Source: Octopus sinensis
Taxonomy: Eukaryota
Length of the DNA stretch: 64,000 nucleotides
Reading direction: 5' to 3'
Assembly (NCBI RefSeq): GCF_006345805.1
Contig: NC_042999.1
Location: 54,560,001 to 54,624,000, forward strand
The notes under the pieces were generated by a model. That model ran no database searches, was not told the origin of the DNA, and saw nothing but the letters and a program-made list of their open reading frames with translations. Of this stretch, positions 2,943 through 29,537 are shown piece after piece (the first letter of the stretch is position 1; each line of letters opens with the position of its first letter). Both the position numbers and the translations under genes were made by a program.

Positions 2943-3574
2943 GAGAGAGAGAGGACCTATACCTTAAGTGTAAAGTGAAGACAGTAAGAGACTGGTAAAG
3001 CAAATTACAAATGACTAACAGAAAAAGTATTGCTCTTTATTTCCCAAGAAAAATTTTAAACTTTAAGACTTGGCCACGGAGGTCTATGATTTGGCTGTTG
3101 TTTCTAGCGGGTCGAGTTACTATGTCAAAGTTCCCTTCTTGATTTGTTATTCTCAAATTGAAGAAATCTTTTTGCTCGACAATTGAAATAAACGTCTACC
3201 ATGTCACGTGTTCTGGTCAGATGTTACTGATGACGTACTTTGGTTACTATGGTTGCTATTGTTTAATGTCACCGAGATTACTGGTATCATTGACTAACAA
3301 CACAATACATGGTATTATTATTGTTGTTGTTGTTATTGTTGTTCTTTGTTATTAATTTCTGAAAATGAAAGCCGACAACAATACTTGCAGTTCGTTCTTA
3401 CACAATCAACGCTACACAATGAAAATATGCTTTACAATGGTCGCAGGAATTCGTGTTGTAGTTGCTGCAGCTGGTGGTGGTGGTGGTGGTGGTAGGGAGT
3501 ACAGATCTACAGCTGTTGGTGATTGTGTTGATGATGGCAGTGATGGTAAAGGTGCTGGTGATGGTGGCGTTGGT

Positions 3575-3940
3575 GCGGTGGGGGCCTAGTTAGAACTTTC
3601 TTCAGGTTGAGTAGCCCCCATCCCGCTCAAAAGGTCCCTGAACAAGGGTTGTGTAAGGATGTTGAACGAAACACCCAGGTTTCCAAAAGTGAATTATCCA
3701 AACCCCAAATAATTCCTCTCAACACATGGCTATGATGCTCCCCCACTACTTCTGCTCGTGATCAGTAAGGAAGGGACATGCCCGACTGGTTAAGGTCAAA
3801 CAACCGACAAACAGATTGAGAAGAATGTTTTCTGTAGCCCTTCTTTTACACCAAGACAAAACAATGCACAGGATAACACTTCCAATCAGTTGAGATCAAA
3901 AGCCATGAGAGTCACTGTCTGGTATTGCATCAGGGTATTT
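3575..3940 (+). mobile_element. Partial copy of ~550-bp non-coding repeat 'D'
   Basis: Aligns with ~13610-13991 (ggggcccagttagaa...ggtactgcatcaggg). Confidence 0.8.
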
Positions 3941-25145: not shown

Positions 25146-26210
25146 GATACATATACATATAAATGTGTGTGCATATATATATATATATATATGTGTGTGT
25201 GTAGATACATACACGCAGACCTACAAATTCATGGAACGACATGATAGAGCATCTCCCCGGTTCCTTTGATTCTCATTCTTCATTTTATTGCACTCAATGT
25301 TTACCATCTTTAAGGTGGCGCGCTAGTAGAACCTTTATCATACCCGGATATATGTGTAGCGGCAGTTCGTTTGTCTTCATGTTCTGAATTCAAACTCCAC
25401 TGAAGTCGACTTTGCCTTTCATCGTTTTGGAGTCGATAAAATAAATACCAGTTGAACACTAGGTGATCAGCTTACCCCCTCCCCCGAAATTGCTAGCCTT
25501 ATGCCAAAATTTGAAATCAATATTTACCATCTTAAACCCAATAAATCAGTCGTAATCGATCACCTTATCTATCATATTCAGCCTCTTTTTTGCATACACC
25601 CTCTCCTCTTCCTCCTCCACACACCACCAGCCAATCACTTATTTGGACTTCTGCATCATCAAAGCCCTTCAAGCACAAATCAGATTGGTAGCTTCTACTT
25701 GAGTGTTCGACCTGTATAAAATAGAACCTTAATGTCCCTCAAATCAGATCCTTACATTCTTCAGATAAAAAAAAATAACGTTGGAAACGGAAACATTAGA
25801 TAACTTAATTCAAGATGCACTGACTTGAAGTTAAGACAAGATGGTCGTGGCTGGAGTTCTTTTGATCATATATCTGCTGTTTCAGAACTCTCTTGGGACC
25901 GAGCAATAATCGCTGTGGCACAAGAAGAGTCTGGCAAAGTTTCTAGTCTGACTCCATCTGATTCTCATCTTTTGGCAAAGTAATTTCCAGTCAAACCGCG
26001 CCGTCCCAGCGTGTGTCGACGAGCAGCGTTTTCACTCATATTCTATTAACGTTCTTCTGCTTCTGTCTTCGATACAACACATTCCTTTGCCAATTCCTTT
26101 AACAAGCTTTTAGCTTCTTCTTTTTTTTTGCACAAAAATATTATTTTTGCATTTCTTTAATGGAAACAATTCAGGAACGACAGTTCTGTTGGTAGACACG
26201 ATTACTCTGA

Positions 26211-26242
<32 letters not shown>

Positions 26243-26298
26243 TGGTAGTGGTGTTAGTAGTAGTAGTAGTAGTAGTAGTGGTAGTGGTAGTGGTAGTG

Positions 26299-26333
<35 letters not shown>

Positions 26334-26799
26334 TGGTGGTGGTGGTGGTGTCGGGTAGTGATGGTGGTCGTGTTTATTGCAATTTGTGTAGAGTATTGTT
26401 GTTGTTCAACCCTAGGATAGTTGCAAATACACAAACCTATGATCGAAAGCGCTCCACTTGTGAACATCTTGACTTTTCATAAGACTATAGTACGTAATTT
26501 GAAGAAGACCTGGTTGTTATTTCTAACTGAGCAAGCAACCTCAAAGAGGTTCTCTCATTCACTATGATATTAATGTTTATAGTTTAGTTGGTGGTGGTGG
26601 TGCTGCTGGTGGTGTGATTATTTTTGTTGTTGTTGTTGGTGGTGGTGATGGTGCTGGTGTTTCGCCCCATTGGTTGGGATTAAACGAGACACTTACAACC
26701 AAAGACAATCCATCCAGGACCATCTTGTCTATATTTCAGACAATATACCTCAAGCCAAACCAGCGAGATTCCATAGTCTGAGAGAAGTCGAGGATAGAC

Positions 26800-27200
26800 A
26801 TCAAGGGACGTGACCTCTTCATTATGTGAGGCCACAATTGGAGCGCTTCAGTGATACATTTACTTCATCAGGATTGACCTTGGATAAACAACAACGAAAG
26901 CAATAACAACTAGCTGTGTTGTAGGGGTGAGTGCAGTTGTGGCCATGGTAAACGGGGTGTTTGTAGAGGTTTTTGAGAGAAGATAGGGGAGGGATGTTTA
27001 AACACCACAAGTTACCCTAACCTCCTGTTAATTGAAGAAACTTTTGTTTTATTAGCAAGGAGTGGAAGAGGTAACATTATACGGTGAACTCGACACAACA
27101 ATGAGTATTGTGAGAGAAGGGTCGGAATGTTTGAGGACATCCGTTAATATCAGCAGATACGTATCAGGTAGGAGAATGTCGAACAGAGGGACCCTAATAA
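26800..27200 (-). mobile_element. Penelope-like 3' fragment with degenerate hammerhead
   Basis: Decayed ..LTIL..LLIKQK..SINR-like end; minus 26838-26874 CTGATGA-AGT-loop-ACT-GAAGCGCTC. Confidence 0.45.
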
Positions 27201-27205
27201 ATAAA

Positions 27206-27246
<41 letters not shown>

Positions 27247-27520
27247 GTGTGTAGGTAAAATGGCACACACAGAAGTAGACTGTCCTTAAACAATCGAAAC
27301 AATAGACATATTTTATTACATACTCAGCAGTAAATATGTTAATTACGTCCATGTCTAAGATAAATTAATTAGTTCTACCAACCTAATCAGTGTCAACTTT
27401 TCATTTTAGATTGTCTAGATCAGTGGTTCTCAACCATTTTTCACCAACGGACACCTTTGATTTCTGTTAAACTCGAGTGGACCCTTCTAACCATTTAATG
27501 CTTTAAAAAATTTTATATTT

Positions 27521-28238
27521 TTTAAAGAATAAAATATTTTGAATGACACAACAAATACACTATAATAACAACAATGGACTATAATAACTTGTAATTTAAT
27601 CATCCATCATCCGATATAATATTTCGGAATAAAAATTCCTTCTTCAGATATCCCTTGAAATTGATGGAGTCGCTGCTATTATCGTACAATCGGTTTTACA
27701 GCGGCTTTTCTTTGTTTTTTTGGAAGCGTTTATAATCTAGTTGTTGTTGGTGATGGTGGTGGTGATGGTGTGATTGTTTTTGTTGTTGGTGGTAGTGATG
27801 CTGGTGGTGCTTGTATTTCGCCCCATTGGTTGGGCTTAAATGAGACACTTATAATCAAAGACAATCCATCCAGGACCACCTTATCTATATTTCAGACAAT
27901 ATACCGAAAAAAAACCCACAAAAAGCCGTTGGAAAACCGATTATAGCAGCGACTCCATCAATTCCTAGGGATATCTGAAGAAAGAATTTTTATTCCGAAA
28001 TATCATATCAGACACTTTACTCTTTTATTCTTTTACTTGTTTCAGTCATTTGACGGCGGCCATGCTGGAGCACCGCCTTTAATCGAGCAACTCAACCCCG
28101 AGACTTATTCTTTTGTAAGCCCAGTACTTATTCTATCGGTCTCTTTTGCCGAACCGCTAAGTAACGGGGACATAAACACACCAGCATCGGTTGTCGAGCA
28201 ATGCTAGGGGGACAAACACAGACGCACAAACACACACA

Positions 28239-28296
<58 letters not shown>

Positions 28297-28550
28297 TACG
28301 ACGGGCTTCTTTCAGTTTCCGTCTACTAAATCCACTCACAAGGCTTTGGTCGACCCAAGGCTATAGTAGAAGACACTTGCCCAAGGTGCCACGCAGTGTG
28401 ACTGAACCCGGAACCATGTGGCTGGTAAACAAGCTACTTACCACAGAGCCACTCCTGTGCGTATGGATAATTAAATTACAACAGTTCTTATAGTCCATTG
28501 TTTGTATTATAGATCATTGTTGTGTCATTCAAAACATTTTATTCTTTACA
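27521..28550. repeat. Long inverted repeat (~200-bp arms) with a locally duplicated loop
   Basis: 27521-27722 is the reverse complement of 27904-28012 plus 28463-28550; loop 27728-27905 matches 26575-26749. Confidence 0.9.
28016..28460 (-). mobile_element. SINE family A inserted into the right arm of the foldback
   Basis: Full-length copy; arm sequence continues on both sides. Confidence 0.9.
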
Positions 28551-29280
28551 AACAACACGCAATGCTTCAAGCGAACTACAATACTCTCTTATAGTTTTTA
28601 TAATTAAACATTATTAGGAATTGTGTCAAAAAATTGTTGAAATATTTTGTGCATTGTAGAAGTATGACCAATTTATTGCAGATAAATTTTAACAACAAAA
28701 TCGTCTATGGACTCTCAATGGCCATGTGGACCCCGAGTAAGAAACACTGGTCTAGATTATTGCTCCATATCATAAAAGATAACACCCGACATCCTCGAGT
28801 TGAATGCTGCGCTTTTAAAAGAAATCGCCGTTTCTTTTACCCAGAAACGGTTCCAGCCTTTCCTGACGTCATAAGACGGGACGGGATCTTTTCTTTATCA
28901 GAGGAGAAAATGTTGTGATGTGTGTCTGTGTGTGTCTTGAGCAAACGAGAAACTCTCTGCTTGGTTTCTCTTCCTGCTAAAAATAGCAGCTAAATTGGAA
29001 CATGGAATTAACATGGAATTTTGATTGAAGGCTTTGATTTACGTCACTTGAACTTTTTTCTTACCATATTTCTGATGAAGTATTCTGCATCCGTTTTAAT
29101 AAATCTTGAAAACAATGAAGAATTTAGTAAAATAACTTAATTATTATTTAATTAGTAAAATAACTTAATTATAATTTAATTAGGAATATAAATTAACATG
29201 AAAATTTAATTGAAGGTTCTAATTTATATCATTTTAAAACCAGAAATATGTATCAGTGAACTAGGGTTGGTCTCTCAGAA

Positions 29281-29537
29281 AGGCGACGAGCTGGCAGAAA
29301 CGTTAGCACGCCGGGCGAAATCCGTAGCCGTATTTCGTCTGCCGTTACGTTCTGAGTTCAAATTCCGCCGAGGTCGATTTTGCTTTTCATCCTTTCGGAG
29401 TCGATTAAATAAGTACCTGTTACGCACTGGGGTCGATATAATCGACTCGATCCGTTTGTCTGTCCTTGTTTGTCTCCTCTGTATTTAGCCCCGTTTGTCT
29501 GTCCTTGTTTGTCCTCTCTGTGGGCAATAAAGAAATA
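29281..29537 (+). mobile_element. SINE family B, full length with 18-bp TSD
   Basis: agggttggt(c/t)tctcagaa at 29263-29280 and 29538-29555; tail partly duplicated. Confidence 0.9.

Follow-up and report, generated by a model that had tools for sequence, protein, structure and literature searches.

The foldback analysed here lies inside a hAT-type MITE in a 64-kb window (the whole stretch of octopus DNA that was analysed) and consists, as judged from its sequence, of a pair of truncated 3' ends, both from a Penelope-like element (PLE), that face each other head to head, one with and the other without the tail of the family. The pair is bounded by a target-site duplication (TSD) and encloses a loop that is a copy of flanking DNA lying 764 bp from the left edge of the PLE. 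Loops copied from their own neighbourhood recur at other loci of the same family. The explanation that we consider best, and hold to be probable, is that two truncated PLE 3' ends were joined head to head and that the loop is flank DNA copied in while the insertion was being sealed.

Layout and assembly of the window locus

The features of the locus are collected in Table 1. The host element (27421-28749) has a perfect 8-bp TSD and 15-bp TIRs that start with CAG and are identical at 11/15 positions, and it is non-coding and of high copy number, which fits a hAT MITE; we take it to be Charlie-like. The inverted arms inside it align as an inner pair (27610-27721 versus 27909-28012, 83% over 112 columns) and an outer pair (27519-27607 versus 28463-28552, 87% over 91 columns), and they are unequal because only the right one bears a 40-nt extension, a point that is absent from the preliminary description. 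The loop aligns with its source on the same strand over 178 columns (E 8e-55), with microhomology of 2 nt at both joints (GT on the left, CC on the right). When the 2.72-Gb genome (G000) was searched with the loop stripped of its repetitive part, four candidates gave four matches: the loop itself, its counterpart in the flank (91%) and a pair of 50-nt matches at E 6e-6.

The MITE with its perfect TSD, the inverted arms, the loop with its same-strand source and the SINE splitting the right arm had all been seen in the preliminary description, and all of them are present, with the coordinates slightly corrected here. The degenerate TSD suggested there also proves to be real: its two copies agree over 10-12 bp with one mismatch, and since the stretch that flanks the arms twice here is single in other MITE copies (L250, L258, L021), it is the TSD of the PLE. 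The order of events is the MITE, then the PLE and then the interrupting repeat, which we presume to be a SINE, the label being our own and not taken from a database. A long-ORF scan found no real gene in the window, with which an intron location remains compatible.

Table 1. Features of the window locus (positions in the window)
Feature	Coordinates	Strand	Remark
Loop source, single-copy flank DNA with GGT/GTT low-complexity 5' part	26575..26749	+	86% to loop; only two full copies in G000
Left 8-bp TSD of hAT MITE (GTCTAGAT)	27413..27420	+	
Host hAT MITE, 5' part with TIR	27421..27522	+	matches L021, L250, L113
PLE target-site duplication, left copy, 10-12 bp, TTATATTTTT(TA)	27513..27524	+	single in other MITE copies
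Left arm: tail-less PLE 3' end (pLTR), inverted, 5'-truncated	27523..27729	-	1319 G000 candidates; stops at tail-less boundary of PLE family
Minimal type I hammerhead-like motif, left arm	27613..27652	-	core CUGAnGA / GAAA / UH, stems I and II; sequence motif only
Captured local DNA (loop)	27728..27905	+	similarity to flank; bridged by independent contig
Right arm, part 1: PLE 3' end, sense	27904..28013	+	5' truncation at nearly the same point as left arm
Minimal type I hammerhead-like motif, right arm, one stem II pair broken	27970..28009	+	
Later SINE (presumed) inside right arm, no TSD seen	28014..28461	-	other window copies 76-89%; arm reads through across it
Right arm, part 2, to tail-less boundary	28462..28548	+	
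PLE tail, 40 nt, right arm only	28549..28588	+	two discrete family 3' ends; 179 exact matches of 31-nt tail motif
PLE target-site duplication, right copy, TTATAGTTTT(TA)	28589..28600	+	
Host hAT MITE, 3' part with TIR	28601..28749	+	2183 G000 candidates, 40 scored at 82-100%
Right 8-bp TSD of hAT MITE (GTCTAGAT)	28750..28757	+	

It is noted that palindromes and tandem or inverted PLE units are hard to assemble (PMC8557442), and misassembly had been named as a refutation of the earlier reading. A contig from another study (X19) spans both joints between the arms and the loop colinearly, with no differences in the aligned parts (27628-27733 and 27812-27949, the aligner skipping the low-complexity middle), and the second copy, i.e. 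the loop source, is a separate contig in both X19 and X2. In a search for the empty site in a related organism, a contig (X9) covers 26700-27530 at about 5% divergence and reaches only 8 bases into the arm, and one raw-read set (X22) gave two reads only. Since the loop and its source differ by about 10%, contigs of other studies bridge the joints and the second copy is assembled separately, the structure is not a misassembly; as the same pattern also recurs at other loci, we give an assembly artefact a negligible chance.

Some further features of the locus are also noted. The presumed SINE starts four bases past the end of the hammerhead-like motif, and several other PLE copies have SINEs or gaps within their last 130 nt. 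Another SINE-like repeat flanks the region in two diverged copies (25312-25463 and 29280-29431, 74%), and an (AGT)n/(GGT)n array, for which no role is shown, lies at 26211-26349, 230 bp upstream of the loop source. The same MITE family hosts the PLE at five of roughly 260 sites seen (window, L021, L239, L250 and L258), with different insertion points and PLE lengths. Only about four copies of the MITE occur otherwise in the DNA examined, which gives a rough estimate of tenfold enrichment or more, and the AT-rich centre of the MITE may be a target hotspot of the PLE.

Arms as the 3' ends of a Penelope-like element

Walking inward from the arm leads into a GIY-YIG frame and, in longer copies, into a frame with both RVT_1 and GIY-YIG. 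At L059 one frame of 350 aa holds RVT_1 (E 5.6e-9) and GIY-YIG (E 7.8e-6), both above the Pfam cut-off, and an ORF of this type is linked continuously to the arm through L015, L040, L042 and L055; the window copy has no ORF left. The arm is multi-copy, not single-copy, most of the first 30 loci have a single arm that runs on into common sequence, and the copies form a 5'-truncation ladder, and their 3' ends fall on one or other of two fixed positions separated by about 40 nt, the stretch between them being the PLE tail. On these sequence grounds the arms are the 3' end of a PLE family, not transposon TIRs, and the predicted product makes the family an endonuclease-bearing (EN+) PLE. It shares with the EN+ PLEs described before (PMC3846280; PMC8557442; PMC11167929) an RT with a C-terminal GIY-YIG domain, the 5' truncation, the inverted 5'-truncated copy, the tail of 30-40 nt on one arm, the 8-12 bp TSD and the AT-rich targets, and it may share a hammerhead-type motif. 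Directly before the GIY motif, the L037-type frames of L059 and L064 have C-x4-C-x2-C. As a CX2-5CxxC zinc-finger linker between RT and EN marks the Neptune/Nematis-type PLEs (PMC8557442), the family likely belongs to that clade.

The hammerhead-like motif is a minimal one of the kind in PMC4209133. In 15 copies 95.3% of the cells are paired, but the pairs show neither compensatory changes nor an excess over shuffles. An Rfam scan of eight loci gave no hammerhead; its 41 matches are all below the gathering score and of the kind of miRNA or simple-repeat noise.

A 17-nt motif has 663 exact matches, and the layout was scored over a sample of loci. The sample of 183 large loci (7.8-9.9 kb) is composed of 165 loci chosen blind to structure, 14 chosen as foldbacks, three chosen after a gap had been seen and the window, with L167 left out as a duplicate of L166. 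Head-to-head foldbacks make up 101/183 loci (83/165 of the structure-blind ones), and the other 82 have no second arm. Among the foldbacks, 75 pair a tailed with a tail-less arm, two have two tails, two have none and 22 have an eroded end, and the two arms share the subfamily in 72 of 74 typed pairs. TSD-like repeats, mostly of 9-13 bp and non-simple, occur at 30 of the 79 scorable foldbacks versus 22 of 400 shuffled pairs, and 23 of the 79 have target sites in simple repeats. Head-to-head arms are the usual layout of this PLE family, a trait that is already published for PLEs (PMC3846280; PMC8557442). The rare case of a tail on both arms is seen at L308 (3687-4115) and at one more locus, and whole PLE insertions or foldbacks are tandemly duplicated with their flanks at L106, L113, L131, L169, L233/L234 and L024/L025.

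The preliminary description had considered a Pack-MULE-like element with long TIRs. Superficially, the inverted arms, the TSD of 9-13 bp and the captured internal fragment do resemble a Pack-MULE or Pack-TIR element with 200-bp TIRs that captures and moves local DNA, such elements being bounded by a TSD and enclosing a piece of host DNA between their inverted arms (PMC8277862). They are, however, DNA transposons with fixed TIRs and a moving cargo, whereas the octopus arms are truncated retroelement ends and their cargo lies beside its source. The 82 single-armed loci, the varying arm lengths and inner ends, the one-sided tail and the truncation ladder that runs into the RT-GIY-YIG ORF all stand against such an element, and the three loops that were searched (window, L190 and L095) are found only at their own locus. 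Since these loops exist only beside their source, no loop-bearing unit has moved, and we therefore drop the claim and regard such an element as highly improbable.

Loops copied from the neighbourhood

In the 101 foldbacks the gap at the inner joint is zero or less in 48, 1-19 nt in 35, 20-39 nt in six and at least 40 nt in 12. Three of these 12 joints (L106, L160 and L163) are PLE-derived or low-complexity. Among the other nine long loops, eight score best on their own locus (seven clearly, one weakly), none of the 182 other loci reaching the same score, and one is sourceless. The distance to the source is 0.3-2.8 kb, with both sides and both strands represented (four direct, four inverted) and with some sources in two pieces. 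Besides the window loop, direct ones are L095, made of two pieces from 643 and 846 bp away, and L308, a repeat fragment from 276 bp away. Inverted ones are L190 (about 2 kb away), L122 (839 bp), L336 (1.3 kb) and L104 (two partly repetitive pieces from 530 bp and 2.75 kb), the loops of L095 and L104 thus being mosaics of two local pieces. The weak match, at L154, is 21 bp long with its source 800 bp away (34.6 versus 30.1 bits). The loops of L190 and L095 have exactly two matches each in G000, i.e. the loop and its own flank. The pieces of L104 and L308 are partly interspersed repeats, with 32 and 19, respectively, of the 182 other loci scoring at least 36 bits; their best match is local. For the sourceless 133-nt loop of L335 (4912-5044), no source was found within about 4.7 kb and elsewhere in the assembly there is only a weak 57-nt match; the source may have been deleted or be unassembled. 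The arms of L335 are symmetric and typed as different subfamilies. L268, with an AT-rich match of 19 bp at E 2e-4, was left out of the count.

Among the foldbacks not picked for their loop, the capture rate is 5-6/97, the background being four of 202 outer foldback flanks with a non-repeat local match. From the joint gaps, the own-locus matches and this rate, it follows that the capture is recurrent, site-specific and occasional. The preliminary description had suggested that, if other copies each carry loops matching their own neighbourhood, a locus-recording capture mechanism is at work. The recurrence of such loops bears out one part of this suggestion, with eight of the nine long non-PLE loops matching their own flank best. 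The other part does not hold: most foldbacks have no foreign loop, and with 83/101 joints shorter than 20 nt and a rate of about 5-6%, the capture is an occasional outcome and not the mechanism of the element.

The second alternative raised in the preliminary description, templated repair after a break at the palindrome centre, is a rival reading. It supposes that a spacer-less PLE palindrome was formed first, that its centre was extruded or broke soon after and that repair inserted DNA templated by the flank. Templated and foldback insertions at breaks do occur without any retroelement (PMC11724301), and in four of the five loops longer than 130 nt the inner ends lie within 6 nt of each other, as is expected of such a break. 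Inner ends no more than 12 nt apart are found in 5/9 long-loop cases versus 18/83 tight joints (p=0.04, post hoc), an enrichment of symmetric ends that a palindrome break also predicts. However, those 18 near-symmetric tight-joint foldbacks, four of them exactly symmetric, have survived intact, and loops are also present between very unequal arms (L104, L154 and L336). Moreover, the pooled substitutions show no later age of the loops, with 70/736 between loop and source (9.5%) versus 85/1076 between the arms (7.9%, p=0.23); for the window the numbers are 10/104 versus 13/176 (p=0.51). Nominal differences are present in three of seven cases, the loop being more diverged in L190 (p=0.04) and L308 (p=0.02) and less in L122 (p=0.04). 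The equal divergence is compatible both with capture during the insertion and with repair soon after it.

Another point that bears on this rival is the single-armed locus L311, which carries a 223-bp inverted copy of its left flank (3154-3378 versus 3559-3781) 10 bp from the PLE 5' end, with no TSD seen. As this locus has no second arm, local copying at PLE ends occurs without a PLE palindrome. Over the 82 single-armed copies, local copies occur at six 5' joints and four 3' joints, i.e. with no 5' excess, and only that of L311 abuts the joint. L109, L128, L261, L300 and L316 were considered as end-coupled local copies and judged to be other repeats or tandem arrays. Weighing these points together, we take the repair of an existing palindrome to be unlikely and prefer capture while the insertion is sealed.

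Proposed mechanism and relation to known systems

Both target strands are cut and extended by the PLE protein, whose RT starts at two tail-defining sites (PMC11167929). From these data, the one-tail rule and the intact TSD, we infer that one cDNA is primed per strand. In the proposed pathway the PLE protein would nick both target strands 10-12 bp apart, and each nicked strand would prime its own cDNA, the two RT start sites serving one cDNA each. Because both cDNAs would have the same polarity, their inner 3' ends could pair only via patches of chance or hairpin microhomology, and such pairing would give the usual tight joints. Ends that find a patch would be joined directly. With ends that cannot pair, for example if the two cDNAs terminate at an identical base, one 3' end would anneal by 2-10 nt to the flank, copy a tract of about 20-230 nt from a template 0.3-2.8 kb away, sometimes switch to a second template, let go and then anneal to the other cDNA. 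A template on the own strand of the end would give an inverted loop, and one on the strand of the other end a direct loop. The copying enzyme could be Pol theta, Pol delta or the PLE RT. What results would be a dead scar that does not move as a new unit, and we propose no function for this copy.

The observed joints show microhomology of 2-5 nt, with 10 nt at one joint of L336, and the TSD is intact around the loops of the window, L095, L104 and L308; at L190 a TSD was looked for and none was found, and at L154 and L335 it is obscured by simple repeats. The same joints also bear on another possible origin of the loops, in which the PLE RT leaves its own RNA and copies a nearby nascent pre-mRNA, the product being joined to the other cDNA. 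One such L1 event is reported (PMC10191854), read-through and template jumps have been proposed for PLE inserts (PMC3846280), and kilobase distances would be explained without long resection. However, the loops occur in both orientations and come from both sides, and the short microhomology at both joints is more like DNA-templated switching, so that we think a template jump of the RT quite improbable, and the copying of flank DNA at the sealing step is retained. The local DNA trapped at the inner joint points to a joining step on the chromosome, at the target site, rather than to self-priming of RNA before integration. The origin of the inverted ends of PLEs is described as unresolved in PMC8557442 and PMC11167929, and a chromosomal joint would make the two-cDNA model directly testable, both in the existing in vitro system for PLEs and in mutants of DNA repair.

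Comparable events are known from L1, where likewise less than 250 bp of nearby genomic DNA is copied into retrotransposon insertions. Templated insertions were reported in 22/3,598 cases, shorter than 250 bp, the template typically lying no further than 15 bp from the site (10.1101/2024.08.27.596794); foldback inversions amount to four events (0.4%) of 52-220 bp at the 5' target side (PMC10191854), and three further cases are given in PMC11702581. They have been explained by a cDNA that leaves the RNA and pairs with local DNA, or by DNA synthesis at the final resolution. L311 is a case of this L1 type, i.e. a foldback inversion, and local genomic DNA inside a TSD-bounded insertion, as in L1, is present in the four TSD-bearing cases named above. 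By contrast with L1, in the octopus PLE 5-6/97 foldbacks are involved, the templates are 0.3-2.8 kb off, the position is the internal joint, and either strand and either side can serve.

Host DNA is also captured between the pLTRs of Adineta PLEs (PMC3846280), where, as that paper presents it, the captured DNA is a spacer or a distant gene brought along to the new location, or else its origin is not given; in the octopus PLE it is the flank of the own insertion site that is copied, and it is placed at the inner joint of the arms. In the R2/PRINT snap-back (PMC11371274), the 3' end of the cDNA similarly primes DNA-templated synthesis on itself or on the nearby target before joining; that system, as described there, is engineered, uses a fixed rDNA site and one cDNA, and does not make another cDNA arm from a separate RT start. 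The events in L1 and R2 are rarer than those of the octopus PLE. A full-text literature search, with the early PLE papers of 2002-2006 and most subscription papers outside its coverage, found no description of own-flank capture at PLE inversion joints. New in the octopus PLE are that the copied DNA sits at the inner joint, that templates are reached over kilobases, that some loops are mosaics and that a rate could be measured, at about 5%.

More speculatively, and with less than even confidence, it can be proposed that PLE integration proceeds obligately via a two-ended break with a same-polarity cDNA on each strand, and that unpaired ends scan kilobases and copy about 10 times oftener, and far further, than in L1. 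If this proposal is true, the PLE loops would preserve a fossil record of the intermediate across animals. Each would also capture the neighbouring sequence at a datable moment, and short local duplications would steadily arise from them. Such scars create local duplications of 20-230 bp and mimic MITEs or Pack-elements for structure-based annotators.

Finally, we note two further observations. In 5/8 cases the tail-less arm is the one that faces the source, in 2/8 it is the tailed arm, and 1/8 concerns a two-tailed element; this is not significant and is not used as an argument, and there is no bias of side or orientation that ties the capture to one cDNA. At L095 (3885-3915 and 4102-4120) an identical 19-nt mirror of the captured sequence extends both arms, and three of its bases deviate from the source. 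This points to copying in a hairpin, or to a later conversion of one arm by the other, and away from two cDNAs made independently.
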